Origin: Candidatus Tectimicrobiota bacterium
GTDB taxonomy: Bacteria > JACPUC01
Reading direction: 5' to 3'
Assembly (NCBI GenBank): GCA_016192455.1
Contig: JACPUC010000001.1
Coordinates: 1-64,000, forward strand
DNA length: 64,000 bases
Part shown: piece after piece, positions 1 through 14,775 of the stretch
Position numbering within the stretch: the stretch's first letter is position 1
How the letters are laid out: the number at the start of each line of letters is the position of its first letter
Made by a program: the position numbers and the translations under genes
Notes under the pieces: model-generated
Told to the model about the DNA's origin: nothing
Seen by the model: only the letters and a program-made list of their open reading frames with translations
The model's database searches: none

Positions 1-166
1 AGGGTTGGTCGTGCGGAACTTGCGTGGCATAACACCCCCACCAGCAAACAGCGGAACAGGGCCGGCACCCCGCCGGTTGCGAACACCTCACAGTCTACCA
101 AAAACCAGACGCCTGCGGGGGTTTCTCCGACAGGCTCCTAGCGGCGGCAGGCCCTGCCAAAAAGCT

Positions 167-195
167 TTGACAGCCGCGCCCGCGCAGGCTACCAT
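167..195 (+). promoter_or_regulatory. sigma70-type promoter of tRNA-Leu(CAG)
   Basis: TTGACA (167-172), 17-nt spacer, TACCAT (190-195), about 40 nt upstream of the tRNA. Confidence 0.7.
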
Positions 196-236
196 AGATG
201 CGGAGAGACAGGCGACCTCACCCCGCCCCATGGTGT

Positions 237-323
237 GCCGAAGTGGCGGAACTGGTAGACGCGTGCGGTTCAGGGCCGTATGCCCGCAAGGGCGTGGGAG
301 TTCGATTCTCCCCTTCGGCACCA
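237..323 (+). tRNA. tRNA-Leu (anticodon CAG)
   Basis: GCCGAAG/CTTCGGC acceptor stem, ACCA end, D-arm GGCGGAACTGGTAGACGC, anticodon stem TGCGG/CCGTA with loop TTCAGGG, long variable arm, GTTCGATTC T-loop. Confidence 0.97.
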
Positions 324-487
324 AGTACTTCTTGTAAGTTATTGGAATTGCATCAGATATTTGACTTGATGGGTGTGGGAGTTCGTGCCAAAGTCGGTGG
401 GGCTTGAATAGGCACTTAAGCCGCTCTTGCTGCCACGTGCCGCGAGAACGAGCGATCCGTCGTGAGTTCAGCTTGAGCAACTCAACC
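312..487 (+). repeat. att-like island-end element, copy 1 (tRNA 3' end plus ~165 bp conserved flank)
   Basis: 312-344 identical to 2834-2866 (33 bp); collinear blocks GTGGGAGTTCG (375-385 / 2897-2907) and AGTTCAGCTTGAGCAACTCAACC (465-487 / 2989-3011). Confidence 0.9.
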
Positions 488-2866
488 GATCAGTCACCTG
501 CAGCCTCGACGAAGGCTTCAAGGAGAGACTGAGCCTTCAGCAGCGCTCATTCAAGACGACGCATTGCATTGAGCACGTTCATGTGGTGGAGAAAGAAAGC
601 TACGCTAAGGTCGGTGGCTCGAAGAACTCTAGCAAGAGATGACACTGGAGCGCCGCCTCCGTGGTTGCTCTACAGGGTAATTTTGACGTACGCTGATCTC
701 TTTTTGAGTTGAGCTACCTTCCCTTTCATTCCGAGCGTCGTAAGCTTCCGCTTCAGTTCGTTTGCGGCTCTTCTTGGAGTCCCGCCGCTTTTCGTCTCCA
801 GCAGGTAGAGGTATGCCGCGCCTGTTCGTGCTGATAGTTGCAAGATCCCTCCATCAAACTCGTGTTCGATATTCTCCTGAGTCTTGATTAGGCGGATTGA
901 AGCTGTAATTAAGAAATAACGCCGACGCGGACGCGCACTTTGCATCGACCGCGTGCTTTTTTGAAGCTGATTTCGAAGCTGCGCCACTCCGTGTAGCTCG
1001 TGTTGAAGTGATTCGTAGCCCGACTGGACGCGGCGGGGACTGCGTACGATGTGTCGAGTGACACCGTCCTGTAGGTTTGATGCTGACAGCCATATGCAGA
1101 CCTCGTCCGCATCTGTTCCTCGTTCCTGGAACTTTCCAAGACGAGTTAAAGCCCAGGGCTTAAGGTCAACTCTGCATTCGGGCCACGCTATTTTCACAAG
1201 CTGCCCAATGAGGTGCTTGTAAACTTGTTCGAGTTCGGGCTTGGCCATCCAAAAGATATCATCCTGTGGGTCTTCAGGGAAGCTGTCAAGCTTGTCAGTA
1301 ACCCATCGCATAAGGCGTCCTACGTGCTTCGTGAGCGCTTTCCCTAGGACATACACGTCTACGTAAATATGCGCGGGCTCAATGGCGTGTTGAGAATCAA
1401 GTGGTACATATTGAAGCCCTCCGACTGCAAACTCCGCAGTATCACGAGCCCTTGATATCTGAGCCGTTAGTAGCTTCGTCAGCATCTCCTCGGTATCATA
1501 GATGCTTCCAGGCAGGCTCGGGAAGAAACTTCGCAGAGAAATAGAACCGATCAGGCATGAGGTTCGCAGGTCACGCCGTAATAACTTTCCGCGCCGGACT
1601 TTGCTAAGCCGGTGGTCATACATCCAGGAAACGATTGTTCGTTCCGGGTTTTGCTCATTTTTCAGCAAACAAAAAACCCTCCACGCGACCACAGCTGCCA
1701 CCTGACGTGCCTCTGCTCGATGGTAAAAGCGCTCGAAGACCATATGCTCATATGCAACGAGGATCTCTCTGGACTGCATGAGAGCGTCACTTGTCATGCC
1801 TTTGGGATCGACCAGGTTTGAAAGCAAAGGGGAAAGTCCAACCAAGATCGGGGATTCAACAAGTACTGTGTCTTGATTCAGGTACGCTAATCGCCTTACT
1901 AAATTGAAGTACTCGTCGATCTCAGTCCAACGCAGATTCGGTTGACGCAGCTCCTTCAGCACAAACGGCGCGAACAAATCGTGAATCAGCCAGTCAGGCA
2001 CATTTACCCTGACCCGCTTGTGTGCGAAATCCGCTGCCAACTTGATTATGCTCAACAAGCGGCTAAGGATTAGATAGTCACCATCCGCAAGACTTGAATC
2101 AGCTTTATCCATTAGTAGGCTGACCCTGCTGTCATTCACAATATCATCAGAGCCATAGTTCTCCACGAGGAGAGCCATAAGTCTTTCACCGCTTTGTCTC
2201 TGAGAAAGAAGAAATCGGCACACACCCTTTTCGACACTGTATGTTCCCGGTAGGTGCCCAATGTTCGAGATGAGAGCAAGACACTGAAGGGCGGCAGCAG
2301 TAGAGGAAAAATTCGCATTACCGAGAGAGAAGTTGGTGTTTGTAGTCAGACTACGGAGGCGGGTAGCAACGTAAAGCATTGAGACCGTATAGTCCCAGCG
2401 ATTATGCGAGATCCCAGGATAAGCGAATTCCAGAGCCCCGATGTGCGGAAGGCAACGTAAACGGTGTGTTTCTCCTGCCTTTCTAAGGAGGGAATAGACG
2501 GTGTCCGCCGGGGGGTAAAGGGGAATACTGACCGGGCCAACGTTAGGAATGGTGTAGCGAATCGGATCCATGTTCTTATTATAGCATTAATTACCCAGCC
2601 ACGCTAGCCTCCGCCCTATTTGACGACGCACAAGTTCAGCGAAGGATTTCCATATACCTCAACTTCCCGCGACACCCTTCACATCTTTAGTCCCCCCAGA
2701 AACATGTCTTCCACAACTATCGTAGGAGAGCACCGGGGAGGATTGTCTAACACATTGAAGAACAAGGAGAGACTACGCCACCCGCAGCCTCAATTCCGCC
2801 AACCAACCCCGTCCAAGTGACGTATGTGTCGCACCTTCGGCACCAAGTACTTCTTGTAAGTTATTG
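324..2866. mobile_element. tRNA-Leu-anchored genomic islet (about 2.5 kb, low GC, no integrase)
   Basis: Flanked by a 33-bp direct repeat containing the tRNA 3' end; visibly lower GC than the backbone; single cargo gene; IHF-like TAAnnnnTTGA motifs near both ends. Confidence 0.85.
670..2571 (-). CDS. Degenerate HD-domain (SAMHD1/dNTPase-like) protein with C-terminal PD-(D/E)xK-like nuclease; putative defence protein
   Basis: 633 aa; RLRCLPHIG..AYPGISHNRWDY, LISNIGHLPGTY and VRRLAYLNQD follow the SAMHD1-type motif order but lack the metal ligands; C-terminal EFDGG-x-LLETKS. Confidence 0.7.
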   Translation of the reverse strand: MDPIRYTIPNVGPVSIPLYPPADTVYSLLRKAGETHRLRCLPHIGALEFAYPGISHNRWDYTVSMLYVATRLRSLTTNTNFSLGNANFSSTAAALQCLALISNIGHLPGTYSVEKGVCRFLLSQRQSGERLMALLVENYGSDDIVNDSRVSLLMDKADSSLADGDYLILSRLLSIIKLAADFAHKRVRVNVPDWLIHDLFAPFVLKELRQPNLRWTEIDEYFNLVRRLAYLNQDTVLVESPILVGLSPLLSNLVDPKGMTSDALMQSREILVAYEHMVFERFYHRAEARQVAAVVAWRVFCLLKNEQNPERTIVSWMYDHRLSKVRRGKLLRRDLRTSCLIGSISLRSFFPSLPGSIYDTEEMLTKLLTAQISRARDTAEFAVGGLQYVPLDSQHAIEPAHIYVDVYVLGKALTKHVGRLMRWVTDKLDSFPEDPQDDIFWMAKPELEQVYKHLIGQLVKIAWPECRVDLKPWALTRLGKFQERGTDADEVCIWLSASNLQDGVTRHIVRSPRRVQSGYESLQHELHGVAQLRNQLQKSTRSMQSARPRRRYFLITASIRLIKTQENIEHEFDGGILQLSARTGAAYLYLLETKSGGTPRRAANELKRKLTTLGMKGKVAQLKKRSAYVKITL

Positions 2867-3011
2867 TAATTACATGCGATATGAAAGTGTCTAGGCGTGG
2901 GAGTTCGGGCCGAAGGTGCTGGAGTTTCGATTGGGCAGACCAGTCATCCTCCCACCATTTGCTGCGTGAGTACGAGCAATCCTTCCTCAGTTCAGCTTGA
3001 GCAACTCAACC
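2834..3011 (+). repeat. att-like island-end element, copy 2
   Basis: See copy 1; also a perfect 11-bp inverted repeat GCACCTTCGGC (2831-2841) / GCCGAAGGTGC (2909-2919). Confidence 0.9.
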
Positions 3012-3191
3012 AGTCAGCGCCACTGGTGCGCCGCGGTCCTGCTCGACATCGAGCCGCGCCTGAGGAAAGCATTGCGTGGCCGCGAAACCGGGGGAACTTC
3101 AGGACCGGAAGCGCGAGCGCACCTGGGACTACGTTGACTTCCCCGAGCAGCGCGGCGCCTGGCGCTGCTTCCGCCGCGGCCTTCCCTCACC

Positions 3192-4025
3192 TTATTTCCA
3201 CAGGCTGGCGAGGAGAATCCGCAGCGCCACAAACGCCAGGGCTACGGCAAGCGCGCGGATGATCCAGGAGCCGGAGAGGCGATTGGAAAGCCGCGCGCCC
3301 AGCGGCGCTCCCGCGAGGACACCGGTGGCCAGGGCTAACGTGAGGTAGACCCCGTGGTGGAACGTTCCTGTCGCCACGTGCACGAGCGTTCCGGTAAACG
3401 CCATGATGGCCAGGATGAAATGCGAGGTAGCCGTGGCGATATGCACCGGGAAGTTCAGCACCTGCACGAGCACGGGCACGTGGATGATGCCGCCGCCGAT
3501 GCCCAACAGACTGGAGAAATACCCCACCAGCAGGCTCACCCCGACGCCGGTGGGCAGGTGATACGAGAAGCTGTGGGCCATGCCGTTCGCCTCCACGAGC
3601 GTGCGCGACATGTTCTGACCCCTGGTCGGCTTTGCCGCCCTTTGGGTACGCTGCGGGCGGGCGATGAGATAGGTCGATGCCGCGATCAACAGCAGACCGA
3701 AAATGAGATTGAACGCTCGCCGCGGAATGAAAGAGGTCGAGAATGCCCCCAGAATAGCCCCCGGAATGGTTGCCGCGGAGAAGAAAAGTCCGGACTTGTA
3801 GTCGATTCGCCGCATGCGGCCGTAGGCTACTGATCCAGACAGGGCGTTGAAGAAAACAACCGCCAGGGAAACACTGGTAATCAGCTCCGGGCTCTCGCGC
3901 GGATAGAGCAACAGAAGAACCGGCACGAGGATGAATCCCCCGCCGGCGCCCACCAGCGTTCCGCCGACGCCGACGGCAAACCCCATCGGGATGAACCAGA
4001 GATAAGGCGCCAGCGTCTCCAGCAC
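3192..4025 (-). CDS. Sulfite exporter TauE/SafE (TSUP) family membrane protein
   Basis: GTLVGAGGGFILVP and SLLGIGGGIIHVP duplicated motifs, multiple TM segments; GTG start after GGAGGAGG RBS. Confidence 0.9.
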   Translation of the reverse strand: MLETLAPYLWFIPMGFAVGVGGTLVGAGGGFILVPVLLLLYPRESPELITSVSLAVVFFNALSGSVAYGRMRRIDYKSGLFFSAATIPGAILGAFSTSFIPRRAFNLIFGLLLIAASTYLIARPQRTQRAAKPTRGQNMSRTLVEANGMAHSFSYHLPTGVGVSLLVGYFSSLLGIGGGIIHVPVLVQVLNFPVHIATATSHFILAIMAFTGTLVHVATGTFHHGVYLTLALATGVLAGAPLGARLSNRLSGSWIIRALAVALAFVALRILLASLWK

Positions 4026-4454
4026 GGAAAGGCCTCCTCCCGAACATCGCGGGTTGCTTTCGTCGGCGTCGGGAAAGAACGACGCGCCGGGTTCCGGCGT
4101 CGCCGGCGGCTGGCGCGTCCCACGCCCCTTGGTTCTGCCTCGCGCCCTTGCGGGCTGATGCGGCGCAGCGCGGCATGCCGGCCGCACGCGGTTCCGGGAT
4201 GCGCCGCATACAGCTCGCTGTCGGCGCTACCCGTCCGGCGTACGCGCTGCGTGGCTTCCTGTCAGGCGTTCGTGTTGAGGGGAGCGAGAAACACCGTGCA
4301 GTCTCGGCCTTCAGCGCCTCCCCTCGTCCCTGGGCTAGCTTCCCTCGCAGGAGTGCGAGGCCCAGCGGCACGACCTTCCAGGGGCCGCGCGAGAAGCGGG
4401 CCCAAGAAGAGCTGATCCGAATCCCTGGGACAATGGGGTAACTACCCGCCGCCC

Positions 4455-6035
4455 TTACGGCTGGTAGACCGCGTCGGTGCCGTCATCCAGGTGCCAGCCC
4501 GTAATGGAGAAGTCTTTCAGCACCTCGTCGGCTTCGCAGGGGAAGGGACAGAGGGCGCAGGTGCTCAGGAAGGGCTGCTCCGCGGTCATGAGTTCGAATG
4601 CCAAGGGGGCGGTGCGGAAGCCGGTGCGCAGCCGTGCGTTGTCGAACGTGCTGCACATCTCCTCGACGGTCAAGTCAGCATTGCCGCCCATGGCTTCGGC
4701 GGCTAGGTTGCCCATCCGGTAGGCCGCCTGCGAGGACAGGGGGTCGAGACTGCCGTAGGAGGCGTATTCGGCGTAATGCGCCCCCAGGAGTTGGATGGAA
4801 AAGGGCACTTCCAGGAGATTGGAGACAAAGCCGTAGAGGATGTCGTTCGCAATGTGGGCCATGACGCAGGTGCCGCACAGGGTGATCGTGCGTTGACCAT
4901 CGCCCGCCGTGCACGATTCCGTGGGACAGATGGACTCGTCATTGGCATTCCTCTTCGGCCGCACCTGGAAGTCGATGTTTACGCCGTTTCGTTCCAGGAA
5001 CCCGGTGCCGTCGTACCAGCCGATTTCGCTGGCGGGGAGGTTCGCCACGCGCTGTTTGATCCGCCGCAGCGCTTGCAGCAGCACATTGTTGATGTCCGGC
5101 CCGCAATAGCTGGCCTGCGGATCGATCTCTTCCCCAAAGAGCGTGGGCGGCGGGGTATCGCGGGGGTCGTCGCCGTCATCGCCGCCGCTCACCGTGCCGC
5201 CGTTGCTGACGGAGGTGCCGCCGTTGCTGACGGAGGTGCCGCCGACGCCGGTCTCGGTTCCCGTGCCGGTTCCGGTCTCTTGCGCTCCGAGACTGAGTCC
5301 GGTGGTCTCTTCCCAGGCCTGGACCTGGGTGCCGCTGATGGTGAGTTGCATGGGGACGAGACTGCTCACCGTGCCGAAGCCGCAGCGGGTGGGATCGGGA
5401 TCCGCGAGCTGTCCCTGGTCAACGGAGACCGCGAAGCCGGTGATGTGGTAGTGGCTCTCCGGGCAGCGATCCGGGCCGGCGAGCCGGAACTGGGCGACGG
5501 GGAAGTACTGCGCGCCGATGCCGAAGACCATCACCGAGAAGGAGCGTTCGGCATCAGGCGGGACCGGCCCGCCCTCGGCGCAGCTTGCTGCTCCCACCAG
5601 GCAATCCAGGGCCACGCCGACCTCCGGCCAGACCTCCTGAAGTTGAAACAGCACGGGGCCCGCCCCGGGCATGAAGTCCAACCTCACCTCAAACGCTTCT
5701 CCGCCGACGGTGACCATGGGGATGCGGAGTTCTCCGCTGGCCAGCGAGAATGTCGCGGGGTCAGGGTGGACATCGCAGGTAGGTATGGCGTTCTCCAGCT
5801 CAAATTCCGGCAGGGCGGGATCAGGCAGGCGAAGGGTTACCCGGAAACTCCCCGCGTCCGGAATGTAGACGACAGGCAGTTCAAGTTGACCGGTAGCGAA
5901 GGAGAAGGTGAAGGGTTCTACCTCCCCTTGGGCCGCCCCGCTCTCCCCTTCGTCGCACCTCGGCGGCGTCTGCGCGATACCGGCGCCAGCCAAACACAAG
6001 CTGAGTATTAGGGCCAAGCCGGCGATTCTATTCAT
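4455..6035 (-). CDS. Secreted Cys-rich protein with Gly/Thr-rich linker and C-terminal Ntox44-like domain
   Basis: Signal peptide MNRIAGLALILSLCLAGAGIAQ; duplicated beta-rich N-terminal unit; GGTSVSN repeats; TITLCGTC..ANDILYGFV..LLGAHYAE..D...AYRMG pattern. Confidence 0.6.
   Translation of the reverse strand: MNRIAGLALILSLCLAGAGIAQTPPRCDEGESGAAQGEVEPFTFSFATGQLELPVVYIPDAGSFRVTLRLPDPALPEFELENAIPTCDVHPDPATFSLASGELRIPMVTVGGEAFEVRLDFMPGAGPVLFQLQEVWPEVGVALDCLVGAASCAEGGPVPPDAERSFSVMVFGIGAQYFPVAQFRLAGPDRCPESHYHITGFAVSVDQGQLADPDPTRCGFGTVSSLVPMQLTISGTQVQAWEETTGLSLGAQETGTGTGTETGVGGTSVSNGGTSVSNGGTVSGGDDGDDPRDTPPPTLFGEEIDPQASYCGPDINNVLLQALRRIKQRVANLPASEIGWYDGTGFLERNGVNIDFQVRPKRNANDESICPTESCTAGDGQRTITLCGTCVMAHIANDILYGFVSNLLEVPFSIQLLGAHYAEYASYGSLDPLSSQAAYRMGNLAAEAMGGNADLTVEEMCSTFDNARLRTGFRTAPLAFELMTAEQPFLSTCALCPFPCEADEVLKDFSITGWHLDDGTDAVYQP
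5194..5244. repeat. 21-bp tandem repeat (about 2.4 units) encoding the GGTSVSN linker
   Basis: GTGCCGCCGTTGCTGACGGAG twice plus a partial copy. Confidence 0.9.
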
Positions 6036-6139
6036 GACGGTGTTCCCCCCCTCGTCTGGACTGATTCGGCGAGAGCCCCAACCGCAGTCGGACTCCTTGC
6101 AGAACCAAACAGATTGAAGCCTCCCGGCCACTACTCTTC

Positions 6140-6262
6140 CTATCGTTTGAAGATGTCAAGCAACAATGCGACAATTGAAGACGAATACAGAACCAGTGAG
6201 AACACTTGTAGAACATTCACCAAATCAAAGCGGCTCACCCAATCCATTGTCTCGCTGGCCAC
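6140..6262 (-). CDS. Putative small single-TM membrane peptide (35-40 aa)
   Basis: AAGGAGG just upstream of the GTG; MDWVSRFDLVNVLQVFSLVLYSSSIVALLLDIFKR hydrophobic helix; lies upstream of the secreted protein on the same strand. Confidence 0.35.
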   Translation of the reverse strand: MASETMDWVSRFDLVNVLQVFSLVLYSSSIVALLLDIFKR

Positions 6263-6443
6263 CGCCTCCTTGCAAGGCCGAGAACCACCACCCCAAGACG
6301 GAGACGGGATTCGGCGTGCCACGATTCAGCGGAGCTCCTGTATTCATTAGGTCGAGTACGTTATCGAACAACCAGGGAATATTTCACTGGCAAAAAACTG
6401 CAGCTCGGCCATGCACGTGCTTGAGAGTGAGGTGCGCACCGTA

Positions 6444-6476
6444 CCCTCGGCGCCAGAGTATCTTGTAAAGTTATTG
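6444..6476 (+). repeat. Degenerate third att-like copy
   Basis: CCCTCGGCGCCAGAGTATCTTGTAAAGTTATTG versus CCTTCGGCACCAAGTACTTCTTGTAAGTTATTG; overlaps an IHF-like AAAGTTATTGATT. Confidence 0.65.
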
Positions 6477-6559
6477 ATTTCAACGAACAATTGGCATTGA
6501 ACCAGGTTGCTTAGTCGTGCCCTCCAGCCTCGACTGATGGTCCAACAAAACCCCCGGGC

Positions 6560-6620
6560 GGGGGTCTGCTTGGCAATGCCCAGCGCGCGGCTGATCTCAG
6601 CGATCGGGATATTTTCCTCG
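6560..6620 (-). pseudogene. Remnant helix-turn-helix (resolvase/transposase-type C-terminal HTH)
   Basis: ENIPIAEISRALGIAKQT in ORF 6347..6673, next to att copy 3. Confidence 0.4.
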
Positions 6621-6669
6621 ATCGGTGCCGAGGAACTGGTCCTCTGCTCTGCCGCCAATCGTGAGCAGT

Positions 6670-8049
6670 TCATCTTCTCATCTGAACTTGCGCCTCTTCC
6701 CAGAGTTTGGCTGCCCTGACCTTGGTATCAACGGAGAGTTCCAAGCGCTGCGCGTACGGTCCCAGCGGACGGGTCGAATCGATGCCGACCTTTGTGGTAA
6801 CGCCTTGCTCCGTCGTCGAAGGATCCAAAATGACCCCCATGGAGCGCGGCATCACCATGATGCTTCGATCTCCCTGCATTCGAGTAGACATCGCCCAGAG
6901 CACATCTTTTTCATCAAAGACATCCACATCGTCATCGACTACAATCACCAGTTTGCAGCCATGATCAATTCCGAAAGCGGCATAGATAGCCTGTTGAGGC
7001 TGGCCTTCCGCGGTTTTCTTGATGGAGATATAGCAGTGGAAAATTCCACAGCCCGAAATCGGCACATGGACCGCTTTGACATTAGGAACCGTGCGACGCA
7101 CTGCCTCAATAACATCAGTTTCACGAGTAAATCCCATGATCGTGTTGAGGTCTCCAGCAAAACCAGAACAGATACTCTGATAAAGAGGCTTGTCCCGATA
7201 CGATACGGCTTCTACAAGGAAGACATGCCGGGTGCTGCGGTACGAGGCATAGCCTGTAAATTCGCTGAACGGCCCTTCCGGTTCACGCACGCCGGAAAGA
7301 ATCCTGCCTTCCAGGACGATCTCGGACCAGGCTGGAACCATGAGATCAAGCGTCGCGCAGCGCGCCACTTCCATCGGCTCGCCGAAGAGTCCGCCGATCA
7401 GTTGGAACTTACTTTCGTCGTAGGGCAACAGCGCCATGGATGCCAGAGAGTGTATCGGATGCAAGCCGATACAGATGGCCGCCGGCAGGTCCTGCTTCAG
7501 CTCCTCCGCCCGAAGCTGATACTCCCAGACGCGGCGACGGCCGTGCAGACTGATTCCGAGTCTGTTTTTGCACTTGACCATGCAACGGTGATACCCCAAC
7601 GTATCGGTGCCGGTTATGGGATCACGTGTGACCACCATGGCGGCGGTGATGTAGGGAGCGGGATCAACCGGGAAATAGGTAAGAATCGGCAGCTTCGTCA
7701 GGTCAACTTCGCTACCAGTCTGCACGTTGGCGTGAAATGGGGCCTTGCGAATTTCGCTGGGGGCGATTCGGTTCACACTGCGTCGGATATAGGTTTGTGT
7801 TGCCTGCTCCAGCGGCACGCCCAAGGCATCGGCAAAACGTTTCCGATGGGAAAGCACGCCTGTAACCACCGGCAGGTCGGACCCCTTGATACGGTGAAAG
7901 AGAAACAAGGGATAATGACCATGCCGTTCGGCTTCGAGCATGACGCCGGTTACGTCGTACTTGGGATCAACCTCATCCTGTATATGAAGCACTTCATCGG
8001 GTCGGTCGGCTTCCATTTTGGCAATAAAATCGCGTAACTCCTGGGGCAT
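6670..8049 (-). CDS. UbiD family (prFMN-dependent) decarboxylase
   Basis: EIVLEGRI..EPEGPFSEFTGY, KLVIVVDDDVDVFD..VLWAMSTR, LDPS, KVGIDST; lower GC than the backbone. Confidence 0.92.
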   Translation of the reverse strand: MPQELRDFIAKMEADRPDEVLHIQDEVDPKYDVTGVMLEAERHGHYPLFLFHRIKGSDLPVVTGVLSHRKRFADALGVPLEQATQTYIRRSVNRIAPSEIRKAPFHANVQTGSEVDLTKLPILTYFPVDPAPYITAAMVVTRDPITGTDTLGYHRCMVKCKNRLGISLHGRRRVWEYQLRAEELKQDLPAAICIGLHPIHSLASMALLPYDESKFQLIGGLFGEPMEVARCATLDLMVPAWSEIVLEGRILSGVREPEGPFSEFTGYASYRSTRHVFLVEAVSYRDKPLYQSICSGFAGDLNTIMGFTRETDVIEAVRRTVPNVKAVHVPISGCGIFHCYISIKKTAEGQPQQAIYAAFGIDHGCKLVIVVDDDVDVFDEKDVLWAMSTRMQGDRSIMVMPRSMGVILDPSTTEQGVTTKVGIDSTRPLGPYAQRLELSVDTKVRAAKLWEEAQVQMRR

Positions 8050-8931
8050 GGTCCTCACCCTCCTGCACAAACGAGTACTGCCCTTGGAGGTGACGGCGAC
8101 GGGCCATGGTCCGCGTCTGGACCGCCACCTCGGCCGCGATCCTCGAAAAGATCGCGCGACATTGTAAAACCGAAACCGAGCGAGTCTTCTTTAGGGAAAG
8201 GACTACCCTTTAAGGGTAAATGTTGTACACACAAGCGCTGCAACGCCGCATGGGGCTAACCATGGGCAACCCAAAGGGTGAAGGTTGAGCATGGCACGAA
8301 TCGACGCCCGCCGCAAGGTTGAATCACCACGCCTCGGCGAGGTGCAGATCGCCACGGAGCCCCCGACCGCCAGTGAGGGCGGGAGCCGCTTGGTGCGCCA
8401 CCTGGCCAGCATCGGGCCGGCGCCGTATGTCGAGCGGCTTTCCCAGTGCCTGCGTGTCACCCCTCATCCATTCCTTGCCACCTCATGCAATGATTCCGGA
8501 CAGATGCTGGAGCACTGGGACGAAGAGGCGGGCACGGCGAGCGCTGGCCGGCGCGGCTCCCCACCTTCCACCAGCGCGACGCGCAGGCAGGCCTGCGGGC
8601 CGGCTCAATTCAAGCGGCTGCTGCTTCACCATCCTGAGCCGTTCCGAGCCGCCCAGCTTCAGCTTCAGCTTCGGCGCAAGGCGCAAGCCGGCGCACCGCC
8701 AGCGACGCCTGCCTCACCGCCCCTGACCCGACGGGGACCGCCCCCGCAGGCGCCGCAAGGGCACCTCGCCTCCCCTTTGAAAACCAGCCAGGAAAGCCGT
8801 ACCTTTATAGCCGTCGTTGACAGTGGGGGGATTCGCTGCTCGTTCGCGTTGCCGTTGCAGCTTCTGAACGGCATCCCACCAGGGGACGGTCGAGGACGGG
8901 AGTCTTCTTGGGAGGCTCTCGAGGAGGTGCC

Positions 8932-10086
8932 ATGCGTATCGAGATTTCCGAACTTCCCGAGGAAACCCAGCTTATCGTTGGGGAGCTGAAGAACCTCTTG
9001 AAGAAGCACCTCAACGAGGAGCTGATCGCCGAGCACGAGCAGAAGAAACGCCTGCCGCAGCACGTCCTGGGCGCCCTCTTCGAGCAGGGGTTCATGGGCA
9101 TGTTGACGCCGGAGGAGTACGGCGGCAGCCCCTCGACCATGACCACCCTGGCGGCCGTGGGGGAAGAGATCGCCGCCGCCTGGGCCAGCCTCATGCTCGC
9201 CTGGTCGGTGCAGAACACCCTGGCGCCGACGGCCCTCCTCATCGCCGGCAGCGAGGCCCAGAAGCGCGCCTGGCTGCCGCGCCTGGCCCAGCGCGACCTC
9301 GGCGCCTTTGCCCTGACGGAGCCGGAGTGCGGATCGGACTCCGCCGCCCTGCAGCTCAAGGCCGCCAAGACCGACCACGGCTGGCTGCTGAACGGCAGGA
9401 AGATCTTCATCTCGAACGCCGTCGGCGGCAAGATCGCCACCGTTTACGCCCGCACCGCGCCGCCGAAGCACACCGGCATCAGCGCCTTCATGGTGGATAT
9501 GGAGGCGGCGACGGCGAACGGGGGCTTGAAGATCAACCAGCAGATGGAGCAAAAGCTGGGGGTGAACGCCTCGCCCATCGCCGAGCTCGTCTTCGACAAC
9601 TGCGAGCTGCCGCGCGACGCCCTCGTCGGCGAGGAGGGGCAGGGGTTCATCCTGGCTATGAAGACGCTTGATGTCGGGCGCGTGACCATCGCCGCGCAGG
9701 CCCTCGGCGTCGCCCGCAGCGCCCTCGCCGCCGCCAAGGAGTATATGGGGGAACGCAGCGCCTTCGGCCGCAAGCTCAAGGAGCTCGACAAGCTGCGCGC
9801 CAAGCTGGCGCATATGCAGACGAAGTACGACGCGGCCCGCCTCCTCACCTTCCGCGCCGCCTGGCTGCAGGATGAGGGCAAGGAGTTCACCCGCCTGGCC
9901 TCCGAGGCGAAGCTCTTCGCCACCAAGGCGGCCGAGGAGATCACCAACGACGCCGTGCAGATCCATGGCGGCGTGGGCGTCATCCTGCCGGTGGAGCGCC
10001 TCTACCGCGACGCCAAGGTCTTCTCCATCTATGAAGGCACCAGCGAAATCCAGGAGAACATCATCGCCCGCGAGCTGCTCGATTAA
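8932..10086 (+). CDS. Acyl-CoA dehydrogenase
   Basis: FALTEPECGSD, LNGRKIFISN, GRVTIAAQALG, AVQIHGG, IYEGTSEIQ; GAGGAGG RBS. Confidence 0.95.
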   Translation: MRIEISELPEETQLIVGELKNLLKKHLNEELIAEHEQKKRLPQHVLGALFEQGFMGMLTPEEYGGSPSTMTTLAAVGEEIAAAWASLMLAWSVQNTLAPTALLIAGSEAQKRAWLPRLAQRDLGAFALTEPECGSDSAALQLKAAKTDHGWLLNGRKIFISNAVGGKIATVYARTAPPKHTGISAFMVDMEAATANGGLKINQQMEQKLGVNASPIAELVFDNCELPRDALVGEEGQGFILAMKTLDVGRVTIAAQALGVARSALAAAKEYMGERSAFGRKLKELDKLRAKLAHMQTKYDAARLLTFRAAWLQDEGKEFTRLASEAKLFATKAAEEITNDAVQIHGGVGVILPVERLYRDAKVFSIYEGTSEIQENIIARELLD

Positions 10087-10365
10087 ACGAGCCGGCTCAC
10101 TGTCATGGCTCAGCCTTGCGCCTCGAAGTGCGAGGTTGTCATTCGGTCGCGGGGCGCTTCAGTGGCGGGGTGTCGGTGCCGCCGAAGGGTTCCGCGCCCA
10201 TCGTGACAGGCGATCGGGGCTCCCGCCTCCTGGCACGGAGCCCTCCGCCGCATCGTCACCGCATTGCCACACGCTCTCTGCAATGCCGCTGCAGTTTCAT
10301 CCGTCTGCGGGTCGCAGATGGGGGGGAATAGATGCACCTGAACTGGAATTGCAGAGGAGCATGCC

Positions 10366-13300
10366 ATGTTCCCGCGGGCCCGGTTACTTGCTGCCTTGCT
10401 GGCTTCTCTCCTCCTTCTCGGCCTCTCCACCACCTCAGCACGGTCGCAGGGGGGGCTCACCCTCACCCTCGAGCCCGCCGCGGTGCGCGCCGGTGAGGTC
10501 CTGCGCCTGTCGGCGGCGGGCCTTCCCGACCTTCCCCTCCTCATCGCCGCCTCCACCGCCAACAGCGGCCTGGGCGAGGTCGGCGGGCAGCCCCTCCTCC
10601 TGGGACCAGACGCCTTCGTGCTCTTCACGGTGCGGACGGACGCTGAGGGCAGATTCAGCGTGACGGTGAGCATCCCTCCCGGCGTCGGCGGCACCTTCTT
10701 CCTCCAGGCAGCTCAGGCACTCGAAGCCGATTTCTCTCGCCTCCTCCTCTCCAACGGCGCGCAGGTGGCCATCACCGGGTTGCCCGCGAACCCGGACACC
10801 GTCTTCATCCCGCACCTCGACGGCGACGGCGACGGCATCCCCAATTTCTTGGAGGGGAGTGGGGACGCCGACGGCGACGGCGTGCCGAACTTCCTCGACC
10901 CCGACAGCGACGGCGACGGCATCCCGGATAGCGCGGCGGCATCCACCTCCGGTGCTTCCTACGTGGATACGGACGGCGACGGCATCCCCGACTTCCTCGA
11001 TCGGGACGATGACGGCGACGGCATCCCGGACAGCGAGGACGATGACCCGCTGACGCCCGTTTCCCCGACCGACTTCCGCAGCGAGGCGCGCCTGGTCGTC
11101 CGCTCACTCGAAACGCGCGTCACCGGCCTGTCGCTGGCGGCGGCGGCGCGCCCCGGCGACCTCATCGACCTGGTGGTGCAGGGGATCAGCGCGAGCCGCG
11201 GCGGCTACGCGGTGCTCTTCAGCACCGGCGCCGAAGACGGCTCGCGGCTGCCCGTGGCGCCCATCGCCGTGCGGCCCGAAGGGGAGGGGAGCGTCGAGCG
11301 CCTGACGGTGCGGGTGCCCGAGACCGCCAGCAGTGGGCCGGTGCAGGTCCGCCAGGGGGCGCTCCTCTCGGACGAGGTGGCGCTTCAGGTGGTGCCGCCG
11401 GCCCTGCCGCTGATCATCAGCCAGCAGGAGGACGACCCCGCCAGCCCCTTGGTGGCCTCCATCGCCGAAGGTGCGCCGCTGACGCTCATCGGCGATGGGT
11501 TCCGCCAAGATGACATGGTCATGTTCGCCACGGCTGAGGGCGCCGAATTTTCCCAGAGACCAACGACGGTCAGCCCCGACGGCAGCGAGCTGTCGGTGGA
11601 ACTCCCCCACCCCGCAGTGCGCCTCGTGTGGATCGAGCGCCAGGGGAGCGAGAGCAACCGCTTGCTGCTGAACGTCACGCGTCAGGTCAGCGGCCGCCTC
11701 GAGCTGCCGCCGGGGATCGCCGTGGCGGAGCTGCGCGTCGAGAGCGGTCTGCTGGCGGAGGCGACACCGGCCGCGGACGGCAGCTTCAGCATCGCGGTGC
11801 GCGCCCAGGCGCGCCCACTGATCGAGGTGGTGGAGGCTTCGACGGGGGTCATCCTCCTCATGGCGTTCGTCGAGTCCACCGCCTCCGACGTGGTGGTGAC
11901 CCCCCTCACCACCGTCACCGCCCAGATCGTCCGCGCTCTCATGCTCGAGGTGAGCCTGGAGGATGCCTCGCTGCCTGAGGCCCTGGCGATCATCGCCGCG
12001 ACGCCGGAGGCGGCGGCCGCGGCGGCGGTGCTGGCGGAACGCCTGCCGCTGGACCGCACCCTGCTTATCGGGCGGGACGAGCGCTACGCCGCTGCTTTCA
12101 CCAGCGCCGTCGAGGCCGCCAACACCGCCTTGCGGGCGGCGCTCGACCAGGGGCGCCTGCGCGCCAAGGCGCAGCGCGCCGGAACGAAGCGCGAGGCGAG
12201 AATCCTGCCGCGGCAAGAGCAGTACGACATCATGCTTGCCGAGAACCCGGCCGATCCGGGGAATTTGCTGATCGAGAACGATACCCAACTGCTGCTCAGC
12301 GTGCAGATGAAAGACAAAGAGAACGGCGACATCCTGCACAGCCACGCACGGACCTTCTTTGACAACAACGTCGTGGGACCTCAAGGAGGCGGCCTGCTCT
12401 TCATCGCCAGCACGAAGTTCTTCAAGCTCCCGCAAAACCGCGACGTCGAGGTCGAGATACTCACCGGCGGCTTGTTCAGCGACGTCACGCCAACACCCTT
12501 GCAGCTCGAGACGAATACGGTCCTTACGGTGCGCTTCTCACTCGAGCGCATCTTGACCCCCGTCATCAACTCCATGCTGGATGCCATCTTCTCGCCGCAG
12601 ATCGGCATCCCGCGCTCCCAGCACCTGTTCATCAGGGTGGTCGCCAACTTCGGCGACGACTTCATGCGCCAGCTCGTGAGCTTCGCCGTCTCAGAAGAAC
12701 ACCACGACATCTATGAGATTGTCGCCTTCGCGGCCCGCCTCCTCTTCGAGGACGCCTGGCAGTTCCCCCCAGGCCCGCTCACCACCCACCTCATCCAAGC
12801 CTTGCTCCTCACGAGAGGGCCCAATGTGGCGGTCGTCCTCGTCGATAAGCTCGCCAAGCGTCTGGCGGGCCAGCTCAACGCCATCTCCAGCGCCCTCCTC
12901 GTGCTGCGCACGGTCACCAACATGGTCGGCGTCTCCAAGGCGGTGGCTGATATCGTGACCGTCCCGGCGATCGTCGAGTTCGAGGCGGACTTCGCGCAGC
13001 CCATCGTCGAATCCATCGATCCCTCCTGCATCTCCTCCCGCCAGACCGAACTGGACGCCGTCGTTGTGGGACGCAACTTCCGCAACTTCGATGACGACCT
13101 CGACGCCGAGCCGAACTTCGCCGTCAGCATCCCCTTCGAGGAGGGCGGCAGCGCGACGCGCCACGAAGTCCTGGTGCGGGCCGGCACGTACGGGCGCGTC
13201 ACCTCCCTGAACGCGCGGGGCACGCGCGCTCTCGTGCGCTTCCAGACGGCCGGCGGCACGTTCGCCGGCGGCGCCGTGCAGGCGCGCTTCGGCGAGACGC

Positions 13301-14775
13301 AGCGTGCCCCGATCACCAGCGCCACTCTGGAGGTGGTGGAGGAGCCGCGCATCAACGCCGTCGAGCCGGCGCGCGCCCGCCGCGGCGAGCTCGTGCGCCT
13401 CTCCGGCTGCGGCTTCGGGTTCGAGCGCGAGGCGAACGAGGTGACCTTCATCGACGTGGACGGTGGCGAAGTCAGCCTGGCGCCGGAGGCTGCCGGCGGG
13501 AATGGCAACTTCCTGCTGGTACGCGTGCCGCAGGAGGTGACGCCGGGTCCGGGCAGCATCCGCGTCACCAGCACCATCGCCGATCAGAGCCTGACCTCGG
13601 AGCGCGCCGACTTCTTCGTCGACGCCGTGCTCTTCGTCGTCAGCCTGCCCCCGACGATCCGCGCCGGCATCCCCTTCAGCATGTCCGTCATTGCCACCGA
13701 TCCAGCGGGACAGGTCCGCGCCGACTTTCGGGAGGCCGTGCCGCTGACGCTCTCTGGCGATCCTGAAAGTCCGCCGCCCTCCGGCCGCCTGGCCATTGCC
13801 GCCATCCCGCCGGACGCCTGGGTAAACGGCGCCTTCAGCACCGACGCTCAAAGCTACAGCGGCGATGAGGACGCCTACCTGCTCACCGTCACCGCCTTCC
13901 GCCCCGTGGATCCGCGCGACATGGGAGTCGGCCACACCGTGGTGAACGGCACGGAGCTCGCCACCAGGGCCGTCGGCTTCTTCCGCTCCACCGACAGCGG
14001 CGCGAGCTATGCGTTTGAGGCGCAATCCAGCATCGGCGGCGCCGGCCTTGACGGCGGCTTGCTCCGCGGCGTCGGCGGCGAGGGCTCCTGCCGCAGCATC
14101 GTCGTCTGCGAGGACCGCCGCGAGGTGACCGGCAGGGCCGTGCAGATCGTGAGCCTCGACCCGGCGAGCCCGAACGGCGTTGGTCCCCTGCCGTCCACCA
14201 TCGACAGCGTCCTCGTCTCAGGCGCCGCCTTGGTGAGTGGGTACTTCAGCTTCAACTTCATACCAGCCGTCGGCGTTGAGGTTGGGGTCATCGGCCTGGA
14301 AGTCGCCATCAATCCGCGCACCTATCTGGCAAGCCTTGCGATGCCTGGCTTGCCGCGCTTCTTCTTCGACGCGCATAGCAGCCGTCCGGCGCAGAGTCCG
14401 CGAGGCCGGCACGTGGCGGCCATCCGGGCCACGCCGTTGCGCATCTACTCGTACGATTCGTTCAGGTCGCGTTCGACGATCCGCAACCTGCGCGAGGCAG
14501 ACTTCGTCCTTCCGGGGCTCGCCCGTGTTCCGCCCGACCTGGAGAAGCAGCCATTCTCCTTCAGCCTGCCCGTCACCGGGCCGGAGGTCTACCTGAGCGC
14601 CTACGGCGATCCTGCGGCAATCGACCTCCTCGAACTGGTCGGGCGTCGGGTGGTGGAGGCGGTCCCTCAGGATCCGCTCAACCCGGTGACGTATGAGGCG
14701 ATAGGGGGCTTCTCAATGAACATGACCTGCGATGGCTGTGGGATGTCCGTGATCGGCTTCCGGCGGCAGCGGTAG
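10366..14775 (+). CDS. Large secreted protein (1469 aa) with TSP3-like Ca-binding DxDxDG repeats and IPT/TIG-like domains
   Basis: Signal peptide; [27 protein letters not shown] repeats (about 10816-11045); [29 protein letters not shown] Ig-like motif. Confidence 0.8.

Follow-up and report, generated by a model that had tools for sequence, protein, structure and literature searches.

What does a gene do that sits by itself in a small islet of low guanine-plus-cytosine (GC) content behind a transfer RNA (tRNA) gene, and whose product resembles an enzyme that has exchanged its catalytic metal ligands? The question is raised by the first 64,000 nucleotides of contig JACPUC010000001.1 from a Candidatus Tectimicrobiota bacterium (GenBank assembly GCA_016192455.1; hereafter the window). 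An open reading frame (ORF) at 670-2571 on its minus strand was proposed, in an initial annotation made from the sequence, to encode a catalytically dead SAMHD1-type deoxynucleoside triphosphate hydrolase (dNTPase) fused to a PD-(D/E)xK nuclease that serves in phage defence. The reading that we favour, with confidence that stops just short of an even call, is that of a stand-alone mobile defence nuclease under the control of a nucleotide pocket that has been remodelled and does not hydrolyse. The evidence comes from the predicted structure of the protein, the conservation of its former active site and the genomic surroundings of its relatives.

A remodelled SAMHD1-type core and a nuclease-like domain

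The gene and the parts of its product that matter for the argument are as follows; conservation was counted over 92 full-length relatives.

670..2571, minus strand: whole gene, an intact ORF of 633 codons with its stop at 670-672, encoding 633 amino acids (aa)
1204..2571, minus strand: residues 1-456, predicted complete SAMHD1-type dNTPase core fold (HD lobe and C-terminal lobe) in which other residues occupy the canonical metal site
2389..2406, minus strand: H56-N-R58-W-D-Y61, with Y61 in the place of the first metal His (Y88/F2, no H) and R58 in 87/92
2239..2274, minus strand: L100-ISNIGHLPGT-Y111, with S102-N103 for the HD dyad, and G105 (92/92) and H106 (91/92) kept
1870..1902, minus strand: L224-VRRLAYLNQ-D234, with R226 for the fourth ligand Asp (R89/K3), Y230 (Y72/F17) and D234 (91/92)
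1723..1725, minus strand: Y283, in the RFYH stretch of the pocket, invariant (92/92)
673..1203, minus strand: residues 457-633 (177 residues), a C-terminal alpha/beta domain, probably a divergent PD-(D/E)xK nuclease of Card1/Can2-like type
997..999, minus strand: E525, candidate first acidic residue, on a long helix before the sheet (E in 83/92)
790..861, minus strand: E571-F-D573-GG ... E592-T-K594, candidate catalytic motif (D573 92/92, E592 91/92, K594 88/92, E571 E75/D16)

All the peptide motifs quoted in the initial annotation are present in the 633-aa translation, and gene and motifs are real: residues 36-61 read HRLRCLPHIG..AYPGISHNRWDY, residues 100-111 read LISNIGHLPGTY, and LVRRLAYLNQD, RFYH and EFDGG..LLETKS occupy residues 224-234, 281-284 and 571-595.

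A single-sequence HMMER search against PDB sequences gave weak matches to HD dNTPases (2q14_A, 3.2e-5; 9mr6_A, 2e-4), and a profile of the 92 relatives improved the match to 2q14_A to 6e-8. An AlphaFold2 model from the 92-sequence alignment reached a mean predicted local distance difference test score (pLDDT) of 93.5 and a predicted template modelling score of 0.94. It displayed the catalytic-core fold of HD-domain dNTPases, as Foldseek ranked SAMHD1 chains first for the N-terminal part, with an E value of 7.6e-7, and returned 176 matches at E<=0.001. The kinship read earlier from the order of the motifs was borne out, and on the strength of the model a SAMHD1-type fold of the N-terminal part appears almost certain. 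The query was nevertheless unmatched by the Pfam HD model (PF01966) and the NCBIfam dGTPase models at E<=10, and HD went unmatched in 78 relatives at E<=0.1. We do not file the protein as a dNTPase, because both the defining chemistry and the sequence models of the family fail despite the SAMHD1 fold.

The residues opposite the metal ligands were read from three alignments, namely HMMER alignments to the PDB chains 2q14_A, 9mr6_A and 2o6i_A, an hhalign alignment, and MAFFT --add onto the family alignment; a canonical HD dNTPase from another genome (G030) served as the reference for the last two. In all three, Y61 was opposite the first metal His (HSRFTH vs HNRWDY), S102-N103 opposite the HD dyad (LLHDIGH vs LISNIGH) and R226 opposite the last metal Asp (DADRFDYLLRD vs LVRRLAYLNQD). 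We take the SAMHD1 counterparts to be H167, H206-D207 and D311. The replacements of all four ligands proposed for this protein (H to Y, HD to SN, D to R) were thereby reproduced, and they extend to the family. No relative out of 92 has the canonical H, HD or D at the ligand positions: position 102 is variable (L27/S23/W17/A8/T7 and others) with no H, and position 103 (N81/S5) has no D. A motif survey of the 161 proteins collected found Y in 49/49 of those with the first motif, and HD in 0/78 of those with the second. As all four ligands are replaced in 92/92 relatives, hydrolysis of dNTPs by the known mechanism would be excluded, and we consider that canonical catalysis has very probably been lost.

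The pocket itself is retained. The Arg, His, Tyr and distal Asp that had been said to remain are conserved in the family as R58, H106, Y230 and D234, and so are T110 (88/92) and E114 (91/92). Near-invariance at this level (87-92 of 92) indicates that the site is under selection for a new job rather than decaying. The Arg in the place of a metal-binding Asp, beside the basic residues R58 and R227, suggests direct, metal-free binding of phosphate.

Such conservation might also denote an enzyme of changed chemistry beside the nuclease, such as a nucleotide hydrolase or transferase that works without metal or with a different coordination. Y61 (88/92), N103 (81/92) and R226 (89/92) are near-invariant together with E114, D234, H106 and Y283, a pattern that looks as much like an active site as like a binding site. 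The Arg at the metal Asp, however, suggests that a charge has taken the place of the metal, and not that a new metal site has formed; to our knowledge every characterised member of the HD dNTPase fold uses an H..HD..D metal centre. We regard changed chemistry as improbable.

The C-terminal domain carries the D-x18-E-T-K arrangement noticed at the outset (D573-x18-E592-T-K594), which the counts given above extend to the homologs; in 27 isolated C-terminal domains, E525, D573, E592 and K594 were all invariant. Modelled alone, the domain reached a pLDDT of 95.3 and consists of a helix (520-541) that includes E525, a sheet, a second helix (599-613) and two further strands. E571-x-D573 is at the turn preceding strand 575-580 and E592-x-K594 in strand 586-593, and the order E..D..(D/E)xK of PD-(D/E)xK enzymes is found on helix, strand and strand. 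Foldseek with this domain returned no match at E<=0.001. In an unbiased structure search, six of the eight best rows (ranks 1, 2, 4, 5, 6 and 7) were PD-(D/E)xK nuclease domains, five of them of the ligand-activated Card1/Can1/Can2 type, all of these rows being below the stated noise level of 7-8. Two Card1_endonuc proteins fetched for comparison showed the same ExD..(E/S)xK pattern, and hhalign of the 27 domains against them superposed the motifs, with a probability of only 0.1% and an E value of 0.55. There was neither profile-level similarity to Card1_endonuc (PF09002) nor any Pfam match. Prediction of a C-terminal homodimer scored 0.09 (mark 0.42), which bears neither way. Overall, we consider a nuclease likely.

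M1 was taken as the start since full-length relatives of 600-640 aa align from residue 1-4, through to 631-633. The public gene call (P0002; 670-2178, minus strand, 502 aa) begins at M132 and misses the first 131 residues with the HD-like motifs, which hid the relationship from annotation. A perfect TATAAT is found 6 nt upstream of the ATG, with no evident Shine-Dalgarno sequence (2572-2600, minus strand), and the messenger RNA may for these reasons be leaderless or very short-leadered. A promoter and terminator consensus scan of 300-3100 found sites no commoner than in shuffles and did not call the TATAAT before the ATG; an Rfam scan of the same interval returned the tRNA only.

Relatives and their genomic neighbourhoods

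An exhaustive profile-free search yielded 328 representative clusters at E<=1e-3, 52 of them at E<=1e-30, mostly of proteins of about 600 aa. The ten clusters that were examined had 1-4 members apiece, called 'hypothetical protein' or unnamed; the nearest ESM Atlas clusters were also unnamed, with HD-family clusters appearing only at scores of 0.84 and below. A Pfam scan of 78 members revealed no family in common. The hosts of the genome matches (27-48% identity) fall under at least eight phylum-level labels. The source genome had no near kin among 40 genomes, in which only one weak match appeared, to a canonical HD enzyme. In IMG/VR viral contigs, nine pattern matches included no confirmed relative, and tblastn of 72,556 plasmid records and 50,697 phage records found none. 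Fused longer forms were sought among 7996 candidates of 1109-3165 aa and none scored, which is weak evidence, as shorter or split forms were not searched separately.

Two homologs, both from long-read metagenome-assembled genomes, are broken. In L012 (10001-11854), the frame breaks after 181 codons, though similarity spans residues 1-633. The L014 product (P0014; 10001-11205, 357 aa) lacks the nuclease domain, and its tail has a piece similar to the terminal part of the McrB N-terminal domain model PF12102 (5.1e-6). Either sequencing errors or genuine decay may account for the two cases.

ORFs were called in 39 distinct homolog loci, and genes next to the homolog, or separated from it by a few genes at most, were regarded as neighbours. 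One to three neighbours per locus were scanned with PADLOC in 30 loci (E<=1e-5). Matches were obtained for 20 of 40 neighbouring proteins, in 13 of 30 loci, compared with 1 of 10 distal genes located 4-10 kb from the homolog in the same loci (AbiEii in L014). The defence neighbourhoods predicted for the homologs were thus found, defence genes being commoner than in the control, with small numbers and partly chosen neighbours. The following neighbours were recorded, type IIG/DrmMI-like methyltransferases occurring in six loci.

L004 and L038: type IIG-like methyltransferase directly upstream
L015, row 3-11857: type IIG/DrmMI-like protein (1484 aa) and DruE-like helicase (1801 aa)
L020, row 3759-11815: DrmMI-like protein (1336 aa) and LmuB-like protein (689 aa)
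L023, identical to L022, row 340-9243: DpdE/DrmD-like SNF2 helicase (949 aa) and DrmMI/type IIG protein (1412 aa)
L040, row 3172-11089: HKD+Snf2 protein (1119 aa) and type IIG protein (1127 aa)
L028: type III Mod and Res
L032: BrxL
L008: SngA-like and AriA/GajA-like proteins upstream, nuclease-UvrD helicase downstream
L014: OLD/GajA-like ATPase
L026: HEC-07
L027: PDC-S23
L021: weak HmaA-like fragment
L004 and L037, mobile-element neighbours: rve transposase (L004) and Mu transposase domain (L037)
L005, L009, L011, L006, L003 and L017, housekeeping or non-defence neighbours: ArgRS, Fpg, aminotransferase, FAA hydrolase, MFS transporter and GGDEF protein, respectively

In L023, L040, L015 and L020, the homolog closes a same-strand row composed of a helicase or ATPase and a type IIG/DrmMI-like methyltransferase, and these recurrent rows may represent undescribed restriction-modification (RM)-like systems. 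Upstream of the L021 homolog, at 1751-5820, lie an AAA_5 ATPase of 542 aa and ORFs of 458 and 241 aa, an arrangement reminiscent of McrBC; neither the ATPase nor the 458-aa ORF had a PADLOC match.

These arrangements raise the question of whether the protein supplies the nuclease of methyltransferase-helicase systems made up of several genes (DISARM-, BREX- or Druantia-like, or new RM-like ones), the window copy being an orphan that moved alone and is maybe inactive or differently used. The homolog ends same-strand rows in L028, L004 and L038 as well as in the four loci just named, and its start overlaps or almost abuts the upstream gene in L004, L021, L028, L033 and L038. However, the partners vary among loci, as expected of neighbours in defence islands and not of fixed subunits. 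In at least seven loci (the window, L003, L005, L006, L009, L011 and L012), the gene stands alone as a low-GC insert, several times between housekeeping genes, with no PADLOC or defence-like Pfam match among the scanned neighbours, and these lone copies keep the ORF and all motifs intact, except for the frame break in L012. Taken as a whole, this makes a subunit role rather unlikely. The proposal of a 'single-gene system' holds in part: it describes the window and several solitary low-GC loci, but in many loci a type IIG-like methyltransferase and a helicase or ATPase precede the gene, which is the last of an operon-like row.

The GC content of the homolog was below that of its 3-kb flanks in 15 of 18 loci, by at least 0.05 in 11, and the biggest drops were seen in loci flanked by housekeeping genes, indicating that the gene often travels alone. 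A tRNA gene is found within 500 nt of the homolog in 2 of 39 loci, a tRNA-Val/tRNA-Asn pair of cases at L006 12312-12386 and L042 45-119.

The tRNA-Leu islet and its siblings

In the window, the gene is carried by an islet of about 2.5 kb whose borders, together with those of two related islets in the same genome, are listed below.

237..323, plus strand: tRNA-Leu(CAG), whose final 12 nt are the left copy of the islet direct repeat
312..493, plus strand: left boundary, consisting of the core (the last 12 nt of the tRNA) and a conserved left end of about 170 nt, with related copies on contigs C4 and C2
2761..2846, plus strand: right boundary, consisting of a conserved right end of about 75 nt and the second core copy
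2847..3017, plus strand: second, cargo-less left-end copy directly behind the islet, 76-85% identical to 324-493
C4 10095-14094 (L051 4096-8095): sibling islet of 3.9 kb with three ORFs, GC 0.39-0.50 in flanks of 0.70-0.75
C2 68694-71221 (L052 4695-7222): sibling islet of 2.5 kb

GC content is 0.48-0.53 over 600-3000 compared with 0.59-0.71 over about 2800-6000, and 0.509 for the gene compared with 0.671 for the remainder of the window. The islet holds one sizeable ORF, the 633-aa gene, and no methyltransferase. A perfect 33-nt direct repeat (312-344 and 2834-2866) opens with the last 12 nt of the tRNA-Leu gene, and similarity of 76-85% continues for a further ~150 nt; the tRNA 3' end is thus found in direct repeat at both borders. 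The drop in GC and the repeat agree with the earlier description of a sole gene in a low-GC tRNA islet.

A search of the genome with the right border detected the same ends on two further contigs, C4 and C2. Alignment of the six borders gave a common plan, with the tRNA-3'-end core at both extremes, a left end of ~170 nt following the first core, a right end of ~75 nt preceding the second, and the cargo in between. At the C4 and C2 sites, no tRNA gene was called by ARAGORN, and both have remnants resembling the 3' half of a tRNA. No integrase was found inside the window islet or either sibling; the five PF00589 matches of the genome are on C3, C11, C9, C2 and C20, and the one on C2 lies 217 kb from the C2 islet. 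The three islets are possibly a family of integrase-less cassettes moved in trans. The cargo-less copy at 2847-3017 suggests a tandem insertion or a remnant of an earlier element.

They share with integrase-less tRNA islets bearing att-like repeats, which we take to be what are called cis-mobilisable elements, a repeat that includes the tRNA 3' end, ends conserved in three islets of one genome and the lack of an internal integrase. Unlike them, they are tiny (2.5-3.9 kb) and carry between one and three genes as cargo; two of the three islets are at tRNA-3'-half-like remnants, and mobilisation is presumed. We considered the sibling islets as defence cassettes and rejected this; their cargo looks to be of outer-membrane or lipoprotein type (DUF6844/CsgG-like, atlas score 0.95) and of secreted repeat type.

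Most of the stretch is contained in four groundwater metagenome runs of one study, and a small part in one run of another study; no RNA runs containing it were listed. Metagenome contigs from these runs provided no clean empty site; the contigs break at the repeats. A joint from 339 to 2894 was rejected as an excised or empty site and read as a sibling islet: 32 foreign letters separate its two sides, the shorter of which measures 22, and its 6-kb source contig shows differences at 14 of 109 positions.

On the side away from the tRNA, the islet is flanked by a TauE/SafE exporter gene at ~3192-4187 with a GC content of 0.6-0.7. Farther away are ORFs of 558, 470, 433 and 1469 aa, at 4455-6131 (minus strand), 6625-8037 (plus strand), 8665-9966 (minus strand) and 10366-14775 (plus strand), with no Pfam family at E<=0.001.

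A possible nucleotide-gated nuclease

In the mechanism that we propose, the pocket would bind a phosphate-bearing ligand without hydrolysing it, be it a (d)NTP, a nucleotide that is modified or made by the phage, or one that forms part of a nucleic acid. Occupancy by this ligand, or its loss, would control the Card1/Can2-like PD-(D/E)xK nuclease, and the released nuclease would cut DNA during infection, either that of the phage or all DNA. Control by a pocket ligand is the simplest reading because everything else in the protein belongs to a complete dNTPase core, with a conserved pocket that is not hydrolytic by the known mechanism. A lone nuclease without a methyltransferase must keep itself inactive as long as the cell is uninfected, in line with a sensor of its own. 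The parts of this proposal differ in strength: a role in defence is quite probable, whereas gating by a free nucleotide is doubtful. In a narrower version that we deem unlikely, the pocket would act as an immune receptor that monitors the nucleotide pool. It would respond to a modified dNTP made only in infected cells, to a sudden rise or fall of dNTPs, or to an anti-dNTPase factor of the phage, and would unleash the Card1-like nuclease.

Several observations weigh against this interpretation. Pfam, NCBIfam and PADLOC-DB v2.0.0 scans of the protein returned no family at E<=10, and the conserved Y/N/R set would be just as suitable for binding DNA or for a new catalytic activity. Ten of the scanned neighbours were picked as large upstream ORFs, in a sample of only one to three neighbours per locus. 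The closest relatives (43-51% identity; L003, L012, L018, L019 and L031) gave no PADLOC match among the neighbours scanned in their five loci, three of which are on contigs of less than 5 kb, and the association with defence consequently rests on members of 27-37% identity. The sibling islets carry a DUF6844/CsgG-like protein and a secreted-repeat-like protein, neither of which looks defensive. Absence from the phage and plasmid collections may be placed on the same side, although we grade it as neutral.

The siblings with the same ends and the closest subfamily without defence neighbours in its five loci would also suit a gene with no part in defence, namely a selfish mobile nuclease, an addiction-type gene, or a DNA-repair or housekeeping nuclease travelling in islets; a selfish gene, too, would leave single-gene low-GC inserts. 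Against this stand the defence neighbours in 13 of 30 loci vs 1 of 10 control genes, the patchy distribution in small clusters over many phyla, and the fact that no repair-gene context recurs. We hold this to be the least probable of the explanations.

A different use of the pocket can be envisaged in a type IV-like, modification-dependent restriction enzyme, in which it would read a flipped-out modified nucleotide, or a DNA end or strand, and aim the nuclease at phage DNA, with neither free-nucleotide sensing nor abortive infection. Like type IV or modification-dependent enzymes and the lone nucleases that border RM and BREX loci, the protein would join a putative reader to a PD-(D/E)xK-like nuclease in one chain, with no cognate methyltransferase in the window, and like the latter nucleases its relatives adjoin BrxL, type IIG and type III RM genes. 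Unlike type IV enzymes, it has no known DNA-modification reader domain, the Pfam scans of the query and 78 relatives revealing no DNA reader of any known kind. Moreover, the conserved residues are those of the former catalytic pocket, not allosteric sites, and the structural rows lie far under significance. Such an enzyme seems to us unlikely as well.

Returning to the nuclease gated by its pocket, its ligand-gated logic would resemble that of Card1 and Can2, which are also the nearest structural neighbours of the C-terminal domain, in rows below the noise level. In Card1, Can1 and Can2, a CARF sensor is joined to a PD-(D/E)xK nuclease activated by cyclic oligoadenylate; the sensor-nuclease logic proposed here is alike, but by sequence the protein is not a member. 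With the SAMHD1/EF1143/BT4208-type dNTPases, including the bacterial dGTPase defence enzymes, it has the fold in common, but its metal ligands are replaced and a nuclease-like domain of 177 residues is added. We know of SAMHD1-type dNTPases in immunity solely as effectors that starve viruses of dNTPs.

A 2026 survey of dGTPase architectures describes fusions to CARD, death, TIR, NLR, SIR2 and SAM domains in which the dGTPase acts as the effector (PMC13519002). None of the fusions listed there is a nuclease with a dead dGTPase; the survey required a canonical annotated dGTPase domain, which the present family does not have. The text of PMC12839542 contains no occurrence of SAMHD1, dGTPase, HD domain or dNTP. 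Full-text searches of the literature, supplements excepted, turned up no account of a nuclease joined to a dead dNTPase. With no Pfam, NCBIfam or PADLOC model either, the impression that this architecture had not been described was upheld.

The gene may encode a one-chain sensor-nuclease defence protein on an unexpected SAMHD1 scaffold. The family keeps the fold and the pocket, swaps the metal centre for a conserved Tyr/Asn/Arg set and gains a nuclease-like domain, and the rows of methyltransferase, helicase and homolog point to RM-like systems yet to be described. If the pocket gates the nuclease, the family would show a route from enzyme to receptor and would represent a one-gene defence system missed by present annotation tools, as well as a handle on how bacteria read the nucleotide pool or modified nucleotides in infection. 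Should the pocket prove to be a receptor for the nucleotide pool, the protein would be a self-contained sensor-effector and the first reuse of this antiviral fold as a receptor, not an effector.

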